A DNA stretch of 64,000 bases from contig OX597818.1 of NCBI GenBank assembly GCA_951406725.2, positions 124,620,001-124,684,000 on the forward strand. Direction: 5' to 3'. Made by a program: the position numbers and the translations under genes. The notes beneath the pieces were generated by a model that was not told the DNA's origin, searched no databases, and saw nothing but the letters and a program-made list of their open reading frames with translations. Source of the DNA: Octopus vulgaris. Its lineage: Eukaryota. Below, piece after piece: positions 14,991 to 63,559 of the stretch (position 1 is the first letter of the stretch; each line of letters begins with the position of its first letter).

Positions 14991-15009
14991 TATAATATAT
15001 ATATATAAT

Positions 15010-15290
15010 ACAAAAATGGAACAAGAATGCAAAACATCCACACAGTTAGGAGATACAAAACAAGGACAACAAAATATCCAGACAGACATTACAAGGAAAA
15101 CAAGGCTGGGTCGTTCAGAGTTTTCTATCCTCAGTCGAGTTCCAGATTATCTTTGCAATTTCGGCTGGTTTTACTCGAGATTCCTCCAATCTGGCCGGCC
15201 CCAAGGAAAAAATAAGCTAAGAGCATTAGATTCCTTGGAAGAAAGCAGTGAATGCATATGAAAAAAGGACGGAAAAAAACAGAGAATGTA
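15010..15290 (-). mobile_element. ~280-bp non-autonomous repeat (family A) between (TA)n tracts
   Basis: Alignable by eye to 56415-56646 (same orientation) and 56670-56872 (inverted). Confidence 0.75.
15128..15184 (-). ncRNA. Reverse-order hammerhead-like motif, family A
   Basis: GGAA-TC-TCGAGT-aaaaccagcc-GAAA-TTGC-aaagataatctgga-ACTCGA-CTGAGGA. Confidence 0.6.
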
Positions 15291-15310
15291 TATATATACA
15301 TATATATATA

Positions 15311-20033: not shown

Positions 20034-21225
20034 GTGTGTGTTTGTGTCTGTGTTTGTCCCCCACCCCAACATCGCTTGACAACCAATGCTGATGTGTTTA
20101 TGTCCCCGTAACTTAGCGGTTCAGCAAAAGAGACCAATAGAATAAGTGCTAGGCTTTCAAAGAATAAGCCATGGGGTCGATTTGCTTGACTAAAGGTGGT
20201 GCTCCAGCATGGCCGCAGTCAAATGACTGAAACAAATAAAATAGTAAAAGACTAAAGAGTGAAAATATATCTGATCATGGGGAAATATCACCTTACTTAA
20301 AAACAAGTGAACTTTGACATCTAGAAAGGCATCCAGCTATAGAAAAATCTGCCTCAACAATTTCTGCCTAACCCATGCCAGGAAAAAGTGTTAAAATAAT
20401 GATGAGGACAATGATGATGATAGACATAAAAAGATTTTTAGGGACTCACCAAGTTTTACCCTTTAGCATTTAAACCGGCCATATGTTCTGAGTTCAAATT
20501 CCACTGAGGTCGACTTTGCCTTTCATCCTTTCAGGGTCGATAAATTAAGTACCAGTTACGCACTGGGCTTCGATGTAATCGACTTAATCCGTTTGTCTGT
20601 CCTTGTTTGTCCTCTGTGTTTAGCCCCTTGTGGGTAGTAAAGAAATACCTATCTGGCCTAATATTCTACCTGTTTTATGTTTAGACCAGCCAGATCCAGC
20701 CTTTCATACCAACCCTACAATGTCATTCTAAAAGTAGACAATCACATCATTGCAATCTCAAAGCTAAAAGATAATGCATGATTTAGTCAAAACAATCATC
20801 ATCATCATCATCATCATCCTTTAACAGCCATTTCCCATGCTGGCATGGGTTGAACAGTTTGATCAGAGCTAACATACCAGAGAACTACACCAGATTCCAG
20901 TTCAATTTGGTTTGGTTTCTACAGCTTTATGCCCTTCCTAATACCAACCACTTTACCATGTATGCTGGGTGCTTACACCATGCACCAGCATGATAATGTG
21001 ACACTGGCACAATGTGAATAAATAAGCATTACATTTGACAGAGTAATCTGAATGCTAAAGGGTCACATCCAGCACTTCTTGAGTGGATATGTGCAGAGAA
21101 ATATCGGTAGGTTTGTATTGTTTATTCTATATGTAACACTTGAATGGTACTGTTATCACAGACAGCTATGTGAACTGGTAGCAGACAATCACATAACTTG
21201 AAGAGTGATGGTATTGCTAAGAAAG

Positions 21226-21552
21226 GCGGCGAGCTGGCAGAATCGTTAGCACGCGGGGCGAAATGCGTAGCGGTATTTCGTCTGTCGCTACGTTCTGAGT
21301 TCAAATTCCGCCGAGGTTGACTTTGCCTTTCATCCTTTCAGGGTCGATTAAATAAGTACCAGTTACGCACTGGGGTCGATATAATTGACTTAATCCGTTT
21401 GACTATCCTTGTTTGTCCTCTCTGCGTTTAGCCCCTTGTGGGCAGTAAAGAAATAAAAGTTACACACTGGGGTCGATATAATTGACTTAATCCGTTTGAC
21501 TGTCCTTGTTTGTCCTCTCTGTGTTTAGCCCCTCGTGGGTAGTAAAGAAACA
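21226..21552 (+). mobile_element. tRNA-derived SINE family 2 (Meta-domain-like core) with duplicated 3' part
   Basis: GTTCAAATTCC B box; core GCCTTTCATCCTTTCAGGGTCGAT..AAGTACCAG; TSD GGTATTGCTAAGAAAG. Other copies at 1-216, 2228-2415, 11900-12072, 20486-20647, 48508-48678(-) and 50340-51170. Confidence 0.88.
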
Positions 21553-28685: not shown

Positions 28686-31600
28686 CATCATCATCATTGT
28701 CATTTAACATCCATTGTCCATGCTGGCATTGGTTGGATGGTTTGACTAGGGCTGGTAAACTGGAAGGCTGCACTAGGCCCCAGTCTGATTCGGCATGGTT
28801 TTCTATGGCTGAATGCCCTTTCTAATGCCAACCACTCTGAAAGTGTAATGGGTGATTTTATGTGTCACCAGCACGAGTGCCATTTGCATGGCACCAGTAT
28901 CTGCCACAACCGTGATTTTTCTTGGCTTGATGGGTCTTCTTCACAAGTACGACATAATGTCAAAGGTCTCAATCATTGCTTCCATGAGACCCAACACTCA
29001 GAAGGAACTCAGCCACTTTGCCACCCTGAAGCCCAATCCTCGAAAGGAACACAGCCACTTTGCCACCCTGAGGCCCAATCCTCGAAAGGAACTCAGCCAC
29101 TTTGCCATCCTGAGGGCCAACACTCGAAAAGAACTCAGCCACTTTGCCACCCTGAGGGCCAACACTCGAAAAGAACTCAGCCACTTTGCCACCCTGAGGC
29201 CCAATCCTTGAAAGGAACTCAGCCACTTTGCCACCCTGAGGCCCAATGCTCGAAAGGAACTCAGCCACTTTGCCACCCTGAGGCCCAATCCTCAAAAGGA
29301 ACACAGCCACTTTGCCACCCTGAGGCCCAATCCTCGAAAGGAACTCGGCTACTTTGCCACCCTGAGGCCCAACACTCGAAAGGAACTCGGCCACTTTGCC
29401 ACCCTGAGGCCCAATCCTCGAAAGGAACTCAGCCACTTTGCCACCCTGAGGCCCAATGCTCGAAAGGAACTCAGCTACTTTGCCACCCTGAGGCCCAATG
29501 CTCGAAAGGAACTCAGCCATTTTGCCTCTGTGAAGCCCAACACTCAAAAGGTGCTCTTTACATGCCATTGGCATTGGTGCCAGTTACAGGACACCAGCAT
29601 CAGCCATGACTACGATTTCACTTGGCTTGACAGGTCTTGTCAAGCACAGTGTATTGCCAAAGGTTTTGGCCACTAGTCCTTGTCTCTATGAGGCTCAAAT
29701 TTCAAAGATCATGCTTCACCACTTCATCCCATGTCTTCCTAGGTTTACTTCTACCACAGGTTCCCTCCACAGTTAGAGATCAGCACTTCTTTACACAGCT
29801 GTTCTCATACATATGCATCACATGACCGTACCAGCACAGTTGTCTCTCTTGCACACCACATTTGATGCCCCTTATGCCTAATTTTTCTCTCAAGATACTT
29901 ACACTCTGTCGAACATGCACACTGACATTGCACATCCAGCAAAGCATACTGGCTTCATTTCTTTCAAGCCTACATATGTCCTCAGCTGTCACAGCCCATG
30001 TTTCACTGCCATGTAACATAACTGTTCACTCACAGGCATCATACAATTTGCCTTTCACTCTGATAGCGAAGCCTTTTGTTGCTAGCAGAGGTAGGAGCTC
30101 TCTGAACTCTGCCCAACCTAATCTTATTCTCAAAGCTATGCCCTTGGAGCATCCACCTCCACTACTAACTTGGTCACCTAGATAGCAGAAGCTATCAACT
30201 ACCGCTAGCTTCTTCCCCTGGCAGTTGATGGAGTCTATTTTCTACACATTTTCAGTGTTTATTGTACCTGTGCACCTTCCACATATAAAAGCTAGTTTCC
30301 CTTTTAACCCACCTCTGATATCGCTGCACCTTTTATGTGTCCAAAGCTTACATCGGGTGCATCTTATGGAGTTTCTACCTACATCTTTTCTACTGATTGA
30401 GCAGGGCCATCTACTTGACAGGATTTGTGGTTTGTCTGCCTTCCTGCTCACCAAGACTTTGGTTTTTGCTAGGTTAACTCTAAGGTCCTTCGATTTTAGA
30501 CCTTGCTTCCATGCCTGAAACATCTCTAGTTCTGGTAGTGATTCAGCAATAAAAGCAAGGTCATCAGCATAGAGGAGCTCCCAGGGGCAGCCTATCTTAA
30601 ATTCCTCTGTTATTGCCTGAAGGACTATGATGAACAAGAAAGGGCTGAGTACCAATCCTTGATGAGCCCCTACTTCTGAATTTTTCCCTGTACTCATTGC
30701 TAATCCTCATCTTGTGGGTAGCATCCCTGTACATAGCTTGTACAGCTCTCACCAACCACTTGTCTATCCCTAGTTTCTGCATTGACCACCAGATAAGGGA
30801 TCAGGAGACCCTGTCAAAGGCTTTCTCCAAGTCAACAAAGGTCAAGTACAGAGGTTTATCTTTGGCTATGTATTTCTCTTGCAGCTGTCTTACCAGAAAT
30901 ATAGCATCAGTGGTGCTTCTCCCAGGCACAAAACCAAACTGCATCTCATCTAGACTAACTCTCCCTAATTAGTTGTGCTATGACTCTCTCTGTAATTTTC
31001 ATCCCCTGATCCAACAATTTGATACCTCTGTAATTATTTCTATCTAAGGCATCACCTTTACCTTTGTAGCAGTTGACTATGGTACTGCTACACCATTCAT
31101 TGGGTATGACTCCTTTGTGAACCACCTGATTTATAATACAGGTAACTAGACCATAACCCATCCCACCAGATATTTTAAGCATCTCAGCAGTGATTCCTGA
31201 TGGGCCAGGGGCTTTCCCTGTTTTCATATCCTTAATTGCATTATCTACCAAGGAACTATCATTTTGGTTAGCTGGTCTCTCAATTGGGTCAACATTTGGC
31301 AGACTCTCCTCCTCTCATTCATTCTCTACATTCAGCAGCCTTTCATAAGGACATTTCCAAGTATCTTTCTCTGCAGAATCATTAAATGCAAATGCACCAT
31401 CATCCATACAGACACATTTCTCTCCAATGGCATCACGATTTTCTCTCACACACTGTCTTGCAATCTGAAACACTTCAATTCTTTGGTCCACATGTCACTG
31501 AACATAGGCAAACTTCCTCTTTTCTGCTTCTCCCTTGGCTAGATATACCTGTCTCCTAGCTTCCCTTCTGGCTATCTAATACAGTTTCCTGCTACTCCCA

Positions 31601-47898: not shown

Positions 47899-50800
47899 CA
47901 CATACGCACACATACACATATGCACACACACACATACACACACATAACAGGCTTCTTTCAGTTTCCATCTACCAAATCCACTCACAAGGCTTTGGTCATC
48001 CTGAGGCTATAATAGAGACACTTGCACAAAGTGCCATACAGTGGGACTGAACCCAGAACCATGTGGTTGGGAAGCAAACTTCTTACTACACAGCTAAGGT
48101 GGCTAACTGGCAAAGTAATTAGAGTGCATTGTACAAAATACCTTGTGGTGTTTATTCTGGGTCTTTGCATTCTGAGTTCAAATCCCACCCCCAGTCTACC
48201 TTGTAACTCATCCACTCAGGGTCAATAAAATAAAGTACTCTTCTAAGCTGGTGAGTCTAGTAACATTGTTAAAACATTGGATGGGATGGTTGGTTCACAC
48301 TACTCCGTAGGGGGAATAGGGCCGGTTTCCTGGTTTCCCTGGCATATATATATTTCTCCCTGGACAGGATGCTAGTCCATCACGGGATTACTCATTTTTG
48401 CCAGCAGAGTGGACTGGAGCAATGTGAAATGAAGTGTTTTGCTTAAGAACACAATGCATTGGCCTGTCCAGGAATCGAAACCACATTCTTACAATCATGG
48501 GTCAAATACCTATTTCTTTATTACCCACAAGGGGCTAAACATAGAGGGGGACAAACAAAGACAGACATAGGTATTAAGTCGATTACATCGACCCCAGTGC
48601 GTAACTGGTACTTAATTTATCGACCCCGAAAGGATGAAAGGCAACGTCGACCTCGGCGGAATTCGAACTCAGAACGTACTGACCACTAAACCATGCATCT
48701 TCACTTTGGATGGGATGCTTTGTGGTATTTGTTCTGTCTCTTTGAGTTCTGAGTTCAAATCCCACCGTGAACTACTTGGGTGGTAAGCTTAATCCACCAC
48801 CCAGCTTAACACCTGGACTTTGGGGACCTTTAACAATGTCCATCTACTCTGTTGCAATTATTCAGGTCAGACCCTGGTTTAAGGATAACTACTCCCTCCC
48901 TCTCCATCTCTTGCACCCTTCTTCTCTGTTTCTCTCCCTAACTGCTCTCCCTGCCTTTCTTTCCCTACCTCTCTCCCTCTCTTTTTCTTTCTCTCCCTCA
49001 CTCCCCTACCTCTCTCTCACTTTCTCCCCCTCACTTTCTCTCACCCTCCTTAGCTTTATCTCTCCCTCCCTCCTTCTCTCTCTCTCTTTCTCCCTCCTCT
49101 CCCTCTCTTGCCCACTCTTCCTTTCTTACCTGCTTTCCCTCTCTTCTTACCTTTTTCTTTCCCTACCTCTCTCCCTACCTCCTCTCTATTTCCCCCTCCT
49201 CTCTTTCCTTTTCTCCCTCCCTCTCTCCCCTTCTCTCTCTTGCCCTCTCTCCCGCCTCCCTTCTCTCTTTAGAGCCCTGAGAAGGGATACTGTTCTTCCT
49301 CAAGGACACTGCTCTTCCTCCTGACAAAGTAATAAAAACAATCTCCTCGCCTACATATTTATGAGTTTAAACTCTGCCAAAGTCAAGATTTGAACTCACG
49401 TACCAGAATGACAACCTTTATCTGTCATTTCAATATATTTTCACTCCAAGGTTAATTGAATCAATTACATGCCTCCTTTCATAAAAAAATTTAAAAAATT
49501 AAAAAATTAAAAAATAAAAAATTAAAAAAATAAAAAAATTGGCTCCATGCCTAGTTAAGGGATATCAATAATTAAACTGATACTGTAAATGGCTATAACA
49601 TACAGCACCAAGCTAACAACTACCAGTGGGGGGGGGGTAGCTCTACTTTTCACCCCCTCCAGGGGTAAAGTGAAAGAGCTTCAATGAAACAAGTGACAGG
49701 AGTATACAGGAAGTTAATACAAACAAACTGTTATCTTCTCCTCCCTCTCTACAAAATTTGGCTGAGTGTCTTGTCCAGTGCGATCAATAGTTAATTGCAT
49801 GATATGAGCCAATTTAAGGTATCGAAGGTATTCATAATGTCATAAATATTTACTTTACTCCCCGCTAGCTTCCCTTAAAAGAGAAGGGCAATTAGTGAGA
49901 TAATAATATTTATTACATGCAAGGTACTGCCATCATCATCATCATCATCATCATCCAGTGTTTTAAATCTGGGTTTTGTCCCCGTTAACGGGGGGTGGCC
50001 AGATCTACCTCAATGCCATAGCAACCAAGGTAGGCAGGTGCAGCCAACCCCAACCTTTGGGCTGGTTGGCTGGTTGGCTGGTGCCCATTTTCCTTTGCTA
50101 TCATGAGGCTTTTTTGGAGATGGATTTTCTACAGTGAGCATGCCCTTGTTTACCCCCCAACCTCAGTTTCTAGACATGAGTGGTCCCCGAGACTAAGGCC
50201 TCTACCGTGATTTTTAAGAAATGTGGTGGAAAACTAGCTCAGGAAGGCAGGGACGCTACTGCCTGAGATCCCTTTCGGTGGTAGAAATTTCACAACACCA
50301 ATATATATGAATGCCTTTTAGTAATTAGTTCCATTTTTTAAGGTGGTGAGCTGGTAGAACCAATAGCACACCAGGCAAAATGTTTAACAGCATTTTGTCT
50401 GTCCTTATGTTCTGAGTTCAGATTCCACTGAGGTTGACTTCGCCTTTCATCCTTTCAGGGTCAATAAAAATAAGTACCAGTCAAGCACTGGGGGTCAATG
50501 TAATTGACTTCCCCCACTCCTTTGAAATTGCTGGCCTTGTACCAAAATTTGAAATCAATATTCAGTTCCATTTTAAGGCAGTGGGCTGACAGAATCATTG
50601 GCATGTTCGGAAAAATGCTTTGTGGTGTTTTGTTCATTTTTACATTCTGAGTTCAAATTCCACCGTGGTCAACTTTACCTTTCACCTTTTTGGGGTCAAT
50701 AAAATAAGTACCAGTTGCATATTGGGGTTGATGTAATCAACTTACCCCTCCCCCAAAACTGCTGGCCTTGTGCCAAAATTCATAACCAATATTTAGTTCT

Positions 50801-51980: not shown

Positions 51981-52467
51981 GCTGCCACCACCACCACCAC
52001 CACTACCATCACCACCACCATTACCACCACCACCACCATCACCACCATCGTCCTCATTATTTAGTATCCATTTTCCATGCTGGCATGGGTTAGGCACTAT
52101 GACTGGAACTTGTAAGCCAGCCAGCTCTACCAGGCTTCAGCTGGATTCCCTTCCTAATGCCAACCACTTTACAGACTGTAGTGTTTGCCCTTTATGTATC
52201 ACTGGCATGGATGCCTTTTGATGCATCACTATCACTGGCCACAACCACAATTTCACTTGACTTGATGTGTCTTCTCAAGCATAGAAAATCACCAATGGTC
52301 CCAGTCACTTGTCATTGCCACCATTTGACCCAACATCCAAAGATCATACTTCACCCCCTCATCCCATGTCTTTTTGGGTTTACCTCATCCACAGGTTCCT
52401 TCCACAGTTAAAGATTGGCACTTCTTTACGCTGCTGTCCTCATCCATATGCATCACATGACCATACC

Positions 52468-52884
52468 TATTTCTTTACTACCCACAAGGGCCTAAACACA
52501 GGGAGGACAAACAAGGTCAGACAAACGGATTAAGTTGATCATATCGACACCAGTGCGTAACTGGTACTTATTTAATCGACCCCGAAAGGATGAAAGGCAA
52601 AGTCGACCTCGGCGGAATTTGAACTCAGAACGTAGGGGCAGACGAAATACCTATTTCTTTACTACCCACAAGGGGCTAAACACAGAGGGGACAAACAAGG
52701 ACAGACAAACGGATTAAGTCGATTATATCAACCCCAGTGCGTAACTGGTACTTAATTTATCGACCCCGAAAGGATGAAAGGCAAAGTCGACCTCGGCGGA
52801 ATTTGAACTCAGAACATAGTGGCAGACGAAATACCGCTAAGCATTTCGCCCGGCATGCTAACGTTTCTGCCAGCTCACCGCCTT
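52468..52884 (-). mobile_element. SINE family 2, tandem dimer, inserted in an RTE fragment (51950-52970)
   Basis: TSD TCACATGACCATACC (52453-52467 / 52885-52899). Confidence 0.9.
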
Positions 52885-56196: not shown

Positions 56197-56384
56197 TAAA
56201 GTAGTTATATGCTGTCAACTTAATGTGACAGTCCCACGAAGGGAATAATACTACTGCTATTTAGCCCTAGGAAGCAATACTGCTTCCTGTCAGCCATGCA
56301 GTGCTGCTTCCTAGGGCTAAATAGCAGTAGTATTATTCCCTTCGTGGGACTGTCACATTAAGTTGATAGCATACAACTACTTTA
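56197..56384. repeat. Near-perfect hairpin, 87-bp arms, 14-nt loop
   Basis: 56197-56283 against 56298-56384: 4 mismatches. Confidence 0.95.
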
Positions 56385-56532
56385 TGTGTGTGTGTGTGTG
56401 TGTGTGTGTATAAAATACAAAATGGGACAAGAGCACAAAACATCCGGACAACTAGGTGACACAAAAAAGGACAACAAAACATCCAGAAAGAGGATACAAA
56501 GAAAACAAGGACGGGTCATTCGAAGCTTTTTA

Positions 56533-56589
56533 TCCTCAGTCAAGAACCGGATTATCCTCGCAATTTCGGCTGATTAATCTTGAGATTGC
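56533..56589 (-). ncRNA. Reverse-order hammerhead-like motif, family A
   Basis: GCAA-TC-TCAAGA-ttaatcagcc-GAAA-TTGC-gaggataatccggt-TCTTGA-CTGAGGA. All core nucleotides and stems I and III are intact. Confidence 0.65.
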
Positions 56590-56776
56590 TCTAATCTGGC
56601 CAGCTCCAAGGAAAAAACTAAGCTGAGAGCATTATATTCCTTGGAAATATATATATATAAATATATGTAACATTGTCCCGTTTTTTTCTGTCCTTGTTTT
56701 TGTATACATTCGCTGCTTTCTTCCAAGGAATCTAATGCTCTTAGCTTAGTTTTTCCTTGGGGCTGGACAGATTGGA

Positions 56777-56833
56777 GCAATCTCAAGTATAATCAGCCAA
56801 AATTGCGAAGATAATCTGTTACTTGACTGAAGA
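56777..56833 (+). ncRNA. Reverse-order hammerhead-like motif, family A (GAAA changed to AAAA)
   Basis: GCAA-TC-TCAAGTA-taatcagcc-AAAA-TTGC-gaagataatctgt-TACTTGA-CTGAAGA. Confidence 0.55.
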
Positions 56834-56912
56834 AAGAAAACTTTGAATGACCTGTCCTTGTTTTCTTTGTATATATATATATGTGTGTGTGTGGATGTAT
56901 GTATGTATGTGC

Positions 56913-63260: not shown

Positions 63261-63328
63261 AAGTTGTTTGCAAGACATGATTACTAATCTCTTCCTGTGT
63301 ATTATTTTCAGTTATGTTGGTCTAAACC

Positions 63329-63559
63329 TATTTCTTTACTACCCACAAGGGGCTAAACACAGAGAGGACAAACAAGGACAGACAAACGGATTAAGTCAAT
63401 TATATCGACCCCAGTGCGTAACTGGTACTTATTTAATCGACTCCGAAAGGATGAAAGGCAAAGTCAACCTCGGTGGAATTTGAACTCAGAACGTAACGGC
63501 AGATGAAATACGGATACACATTTCACCTGGCGTGCTAACGTTTCTGCCAGTTCGCTGCC
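63329..63559 (-). mobile_element. SINE family 2, full length
   Basis: 17-bp TSD TTATGTTGGTCTAAACC. Confidence 0.92.

Follow-up and report, generated by a model that had tools for sequence, protein, structure and literature searches.

A predicted hammerhead ribozyme with a split core in a non-coding Penelope-like element of Octopus vulgaris

Introduction

Do repeats that carry the conserved blocks of a hammerhead ribozyme in reverse order descend from an element whose RNA folded and cut itself? The question is raised by three related copies, here termed family A, in a stretch of 64,000 nt of the Octopus vulgaris genome (the window). An earlier note on this DNA had observed that stem I changes on both strands among the three copies while its pairing is kept, and had inferred from this that selection in the source elements acted on the pairing. 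We followed the family across the 2.8 Gb genome and compared it with further octopus families and with published Naiads. Taken together, the data make it probable that the RNA of a non-coding Penelope-like element folds as a hammerhead of non-circularly permuted order whose chain is open between A9 and G10.1, and which is predicted to cut itself after AUC.

Stem I in the three window copies

All three copies are truncated at the 5′ end. The copy at 56414–56646 (subfamily A2, minus strand) has its fixed 3′ end at a (TG)n/TA tract, and forms a head-to-head pair with the inverted copy at 56661–56871 (A3, plus strand), which has a TA tract at its end. The remaining copy, at 15005–15295 (A1, minus strand), lies between TA tracts. 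We refer to them as the 56533, 56777 and 15128 copies, respectively. Their stem I sequences are as the earlier note described: TCAAGA/TCTTGA in the 56533 copy (56583–56578 and 56545–56540, minus strand), TCAAGT/ACTTGA in the 56777 copy (56783–56788 and 56821–56826, plus strand) and TCGAGT/ACTCGA in the 15128 copy (15178–15173 and 15140–15135, minus strand), with 32 nt between the two strands. The reported variation at the free N of the core is likewise present (CTGAGGA, CTGAAGA and CTGAGGA in the same order). A CpG-type G>A change, which had been listed as further core variation, does occur at 56799, but the base concerned is G12 of GAAA. Loss of G12 inactivates the hammerhead, and G12>A would inactivate the 56777 copy.

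By themselves, the three copies are weak evidence for selected pairing, comprising only two events. At pair 3, which is part of a TCGA palindrome, a compensatory change might be simulated by two CpG transitions; such mimicry is excluded by the family-wide data for pairs 3 and 6 given below. The three-copy comparison had been regarded as the best internal evidence for the motif, a place better given to the covariation across families and to the pattern at N7.

A non-coding Penelope-like element

All three copies derive from the 3′ part of a Penelope-like element that is non-coding. Family A has thousands of copies; genome searches with each window copy gave more than 3,000 first-look candidates, of which 40 per search were scored and 30 fetched. 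The ~280 bp previously taken as the extent of the family is its 3′ end only. The full unit is ~775 bp long and pyrimidine-rich, and the two units that were translated contain no long ORF. A TA tract marks one, fixed end (unit position 760–774 in 78 of 88 main copies) and the opposite end is variable, a polarity of truncation that identifies the CUGANGA strand as the sense strand. Full units are preceded by a truncated copy, forming partial tandems; a ~55-nt tail is present in some copies, and truncated copies in inverted orientation occur frequently. In the available text of Craig et al. 2021 (PMC8557442), partial tandems, a tail and inverted truncated copies are the anatomy of Penelope-like elements, and (TA)n tracts are the targets of Naiads. 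With all of these features and its microsatellite targets, family A has the characters of a non-autonomous Penelope-like element. Two loci that lie 8.4 kb apart (L019 and L020) are 99.5% identical over 1.4 kb, representing either a recent duplication or an assembly duplicate.

Layout of the motif

The reverse block order is real: on the sense strand, block S (NUH) is followed by block G (GAAA) and then by block C (CUGANGA). NUH is flanked by stem I, of 6 bp, and by stem III, of 5 bp including the A15.1-U16.1 pair, and a 4-nt linker joins stem I to stem II. The earlier note was silent on the 5′ strand of stem II, and it is the location of this strand that is new: 20–21 nt upstream of the cut site, where it pairs with the six bases that precede GAAA. 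Next after this strand comes X′, which pairs with the bases immediately before the stem I 3′ strand; the resulting helix X/X′ corresponds to the I–II interaction helix of type SGC hammerheads. A hairpin, Ha, abuts position 10.1 on its 5′ side. Ha is itself abutted, again on the 5′ side, by a strand complementary to the bases past A9, with which it forms helix IV, so that A9/G10.1 is where the chain comes in and goes out. The whole motif is ~145 nt long. Its first half runs from the helix IV 5′ strand through Ha, the stem II 5′ strand, X′ and the stem III 3′ strand with NUH and the stem I 5′ strand to the 4-nt linker, and its second half from the stem II 3′ strand with GAAA and the stem III 5′ strand through X and the stem I 3′ strand with CUGANGA to the helix IV 3′ strand.

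Unprompted, ViennaRNA recovered helices IV, Ha, X and III in subfamilies A1, A3 and A4; in a second octopus family, B, it gave Ha, X and III. We infer that the helices form together in the RNA. On general junction geometry, they would meet in a four-way junction in which helix IV stacks on Ha, and stem II on the G12.A9 pair.

The 56777 copy contains the complete motif (56707–56849, plus strand), with the helix IV 5′ strand at 56707–56722, Ha at 56723–56760, the stem II 5′ strand at 56761–56766, the predicted cut after 56782, G12>A at 56799 and CUGAAGA at 56827–56833. The motif is also complete in the 15128 copy (15112–15254, minus strand), where the cut is predicted after 15179, GAAA lies at 15162–15159 and CUGAGGA at 15134–15128. 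In the 56533 copy (minus strand), truncation has removed the helix IV 5′ strand. Ha (56606–56644) abuts position 10.1 and is followed, upstream of the cut site, by the stem II 5′ strand (positions 10.x, at 56600–56605), which carries G10.1>A, and by the 5′ strand of helix X, the stem I–II interaction helix (56593–56599). Block S then comprises the stem III 3′ strand, the AUC triplet and the stem I 5′ strand (56578–56589), with the predicted cut between 56584 and 56583, and block G the stem II 3′ strand, GAAA and the stem III 5′ strand (56560–56573). The helix X 3′ strand, stem I 3′ strand and CUGAGGA core occupy 56533–56553, and the closing helix IV 3′ strand lies immediately past A9 (56517–56532). 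Judging from G12 lost in the 56777 copy, G10.1>A and the missing helix IV strand in the 56533 copy, and private mismatches in stems II and III of the 15128 copy, all three are decayed, and their predicted ribozyme is probably impaired.

Covariation and core conservation

Six subfamilies of family A, 72–95% identical, were sampled at 14–30 copies each. Pair 3 of stem I is A-U in 29 of 29 A2, 25 of 29 A3 and 14 of 14 A6 copies; A1 has G-C there in 22 of 30 copies, the rest showing one-sided decay (four A.C, three G.U, one G.G and no A-U). At pair 6, a paired transversion separates A1 (U-A, 30 of 30 copies) from A2 (A-U, 29 of 29 copies). Within subfamilies decay is one-sided, and between subfamilies the pairs of stem I change together. 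Independent mutation of the two strands in a large alignment had been put forward as the outcome that would speak against selected pairing. Such independence is found within subfamilies, as neutral decay predicts, but changes are coupled between them, and the test must be confined to comparison between subfamilies to be valid. Changes on both sides that are fixed by subfamily, at three of six pairs in stem I and in three further helices, thus support the proposal that pairing was selected in the source elements.

We aligned 21 copies, namely the three nearest the majority sequence in each subfamily and the window copies. In this sample, which favours pairing and in which cells are not independent events, 93.4% of 501 cells in the four core helices (I, II, III and X) are paired, and 12 of 24 pairs have changed on both sides, three per helix. 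Slid controls gave 14–43%. Stems I and III each have 94–96% of cells paired and three pairs changed on both sides in the same 21 copies. Counting against our reading, the majority sequences contain mismatches: helix X has A.C in A2 and U.C in A4, stem I has A.C in A4 (12 of 14 copies), and U.U is present at the A9/helix IV junction in several subfamilies.

The core follows the hammerhead pattern of CUGANGA, GAAA and NUH, with N7 free and H other than G; window copy 56777 departs from it through G12A. All 11 core positions are invariant across ten majority sequences, and position H17 is occupied by C, A or U and in none of the ten by G. N7 is free: genome-wide, when the flanks are kept constant, 1,698 copies have G there and 5,652 have A, C or T. 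Core variants are rare in the same kind of search (249 at G8 and 110 at A6), and backward controls gave 0.

Other octopus families and published Naiads

A loose S-G-C pattern gave 70,580 matches genome-wide against 14,977 for a control (matches overlap), and revealed three more high-copy repeats: family B (loci L183–L207), family C (L208–L232) and family D (L275–L288). A Naiad-type family, N, was fetched via a pattern from published octopus Naiad consensi, which has 192 matches in the genome. By blastn, B, C, D and N are without similarity to A, and C and D are alike. Family B is young, with 95–96% identity among top matches. Nine of ten groups, including B, C and N, match a descriptor of the full layout (upstream stem II, X, Ha and IV). 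In each of these nine, 0 of 400 upstream shuffles reached the observed score, and 17–59 shuffles gave a weaker architecture. In family D, a bulge at a variable position of the upstream stem II prevents a match to the strict descriptor. No S-G-C core occurs in 961,651 shuffled bases. Within Ha of family C (L208–L232), a C-G pair changes on both sides to U-A.

Naiads were reported to be without a canonical hammerhead, with only 'core' or 'half core' strings outside descriptors, in the available text of Craig et al. 2021 (PMC8557442). At least 10 of the 54 Naiad consensi in the supplement of that paper, read by eye among the matches listed, show the same layout with different helix sequences. The matches listed covered places 15–44 of 62 for CTGATGA, 1–21 of 25 for CTGAGGA, 1–21 of 23 for CTGACGA and 1–34 of 43 for CTGAAGA, and motifs split by line breaks would escape such reading. 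The entries with the layout range from cnidarians to cephalopods: three near-identical Acropora entries, Naiad_Obim, Naiad_Ovul and Naiad_Esco (named from file order) and four others. Helix IV is weak in Naiad_Obim and Naiad_Ovul. Several entries in the nematode part of the supplement have the canonical C-then-G order instead, and its bivalve part shows no such motif by eye among the matches listed. The split-core motif is likely to be the ribozyme thought to be missing from Naiads.

As far as Naiads are described in the available text of PMC8557442, family A shares their partial tandems, inverted truncated copies, tail and (TA)n targets, and cephalopod Naiad 3′ ends share its layout; family A differs in being non-coding and ~775 bp long. 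The link to Naiads is one of RNA architecture and TA targeting, drawn from the published consensi, and blastn finds no similarity between family A and the Naiad-type 3′ end. No autonomous ORF of the Naiad kind, coding for an RT with an N-terminal GIY-YIG, is linked to the motif in the fetched loci. The 20 Naiad-type copies fetched, of 192, are all truncated within 700 bp and have no upstream ORF, and an exact 26-nt pattern from the Naiad coding region has 0 matches in the genome. Family A is likely to be mobilised by Naiad-type enzymes.

Relation to known hammerheads

The available text of Eckert et al. 2023 (PMC10085705) takes block C as uninterruptible and lists six permutations; known hammerheads have at most 1–2 nt between CUGAnGA and the stems. 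Core insertions of 1–2 nt only are mentioned in the accessible part of Perreault et al. 2011, and variants with additional helices are said to exist in that of PMC13725137. Our motif has its core bases and stems I, II and III in common with type SGC (HRIMA-1) and type CSG as presented in PMC10085705. It resembles type SGC in its S-G-C order, its short linker between stems I and II and a helix joining the other sides of these stems; in vitro cleavage is on record for type-SGC hammerheads that share this linker and interaction helix (PMC10085705). In contrast to type SGC, where the stem II strand begins at most 2 nt after CUGANGA, block C is split here: block S comes after the stem II 5′ strand and X′, and A9/G10.1 is the site of two additional helices, IV and Ha. 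The predicted opening of the backbone at A9/G10.1 departs from the 1–2 nt limit of that account, and counts against our reading.

Rfam gave no gathering match in the window, and no ribozyme family among 142 matches at E ≤ 10 for five loci. A canonical type I, II or III reading (circular C-G-S) was dropped on account of the S-G-C order and the lack of an Rfam match, and a twister-like resemblance was considered by eye and dropped. No description of the split-core layout was found in a mostly open-access body of literature, the supplements of PMC10085705 lying outside its scope. The motif is likely to represent a new hammerhead topology, that is, a new variant of a known ribozyme class, a hammerhead by prediction that falls outside type SGC as defined.

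The hammerheads of Penelope/Poseidon, Neptune and Hydra elements belong to the canonical type I (C-G-S), according to the available text of bioRxiv 10.64898/2026.07.22.740005 and PMC11167929. The non-LTR retrozymes described in the former are, like family A, non-autonomous, of similar unit size and of Penelope-like origin, with a ribozyme motif in the repeat. Theirs is type I and often in long tandem arrays, whereas the order in family A is reversed and its copies are mostly truncated singles or partial dimers. Since its motif is not type I, family A lies outside the non-LTR retrozymes, which are tandem units, each with a type I hammerhead, and have circular RNA.

Predicted activity and transcripts

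The RNA of the source element would fold and then cleave after NUH. We infer that this cleavage takes place, possibly aided by protein. Protein help has been shown for a Poseidon hammerhead (available text of PMC11167929), and may assist here in the same manner. Cleavage may trim tandem read-through transcripts to unit length or give a new RNA end, a role that we suggest more tentatively, by analogy with what is hypothesised for hammerheads of other Penelope-like elements.

At 85% likeness, 871–1,130 RNA reads were placed on a family A unit, in both orientations. Read ends do not pile up at the predicted cut in three unstranded RNA runs from one study, a weak test in which many reads continue into unlike sequence. 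Such RNA ends went undetected even for an active ribozyme (available text of PMC11167929). Several subfamilies are represented among the transcripts, in both orientations. At L021:1300–1780, ~40% of RNA reads have A at H17 (A4-type), and loose ends match A6.

Alternative readings

The hammerhead-derived fold might be real and its cutting lost, leaving a binding or priming platform for the Naiad reverse transcriptase/endonuclease. The predicted cut lies ~175 nt from the element 3′ end and does not mark insertion borders, because only 13 of 26 upstream partial copies begin 3′ of it; nor do truncation points cluster there. Further, hammerhead mutants of a Poseidon element showed no impaired insertion in vitro (available text of PMC11167929), successful subfamilies tolerate mismatches, and cleavage is a prediction from sequence only. 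However, the 11 invariant core positions, the free N7 and the exclusion of G from H17 match catalytic rather than generic binding constraints, and we consider a fold that no longer cuts to be unlikely.

Alternatively, the active form could be an ordinary type SGC hammerhead with a contiguous stem II after A9, the upstream pairing being an off state. Families B, C and D can form a weak contiguous stem II of 4–5 bp that is G.U-rich, has a 1-nt insertion and scores 8–10, and the upstream stem II of family D is bulged. Family A, in contrast, lacks a contiguous helix (0–1 bp in all six majority sequences, with 13.5% of cells paired), whereas its stem II with the upstream partner is Watson-Crick, has 94.4% of cells paired and covaries at three of six pairs. 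The fetched, preselected loci contain 168 distinct S-G-C cores; stem II is upstream in 129 of them, contiguous in 2 and absent in either form from 37. A contiguous or switching stem II is, accordingly, quite improbable.

Chance complementarity, combined with CpG decay of the TCGA palindrome and inherited through few master copies, would make the pairing neutral. This would agree with one-sided, independent changes within subfamilies and with the two events in the window, but the same helices are arranged alike in families of unrelated sequence and in Naiads from other phyla, upstream shuffles never reach the observed scores, and a U-A/A-U transversion pair is fixed between subfamilies, so that neutrality is already largely refuted and very hard to credit. 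Equally implausible is a functional RNA on the opposite strand, for example an HDV-like one with the crossed helices as P1/P2 and a C-N-A-A junction: family A shows P2-like pairing and an L3-like loop by eye, but the P1 candidate has one mismatch and three wobbles, Rfam gives no match, truncation polarity and the excess of G.U (6) over A.C (2) among 120 pairs favour the CUGANGA strand, and what all families have in common is the hammerhead core bases.

We therefore return to a self-cutting hammerhead opened at A9/G10.1. Going further, and with rather less assurance, we favour the view that this seventh, split-core topology, in which the SGC ring is opened at A9/G10.1 via a four-way junction, is an active ribozyme, the ancestral one of many Naiads, and present at copy numbers in the thousands per genome among cnidarians, arthropods and cephalopods. 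If so, non-circular permutation would be common and of high copy number in animal genomes, compared with the few metatranscriptome contigs so far. The assumption that the CUGANGA block and stem II are inseparable would fall, and the apparent lack of a ribozyme in the widespread Naiads relative to other Penelope-like clades would be explained. The split-core descriptor is applicable to any genome, and a motif of this length suits in vitro transcription.

Other repeats in the window

The copy at 56414 adjoins a near-perfect, MITE-like fold-back of 180 bp (56200–56381; DNA fold −90.7 kcal/mol). A 42-bp unit forms a tandem array at 28892–29640. An abundant interspersed family of ~190 bp, 88–96% identical, occurs at 1–220, 20482–20647, 21272–21455, 48504–48678, 52463–52835 and 63328–63511. 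Members of a further interspersed family (D19) start after (ATC)n tracts.
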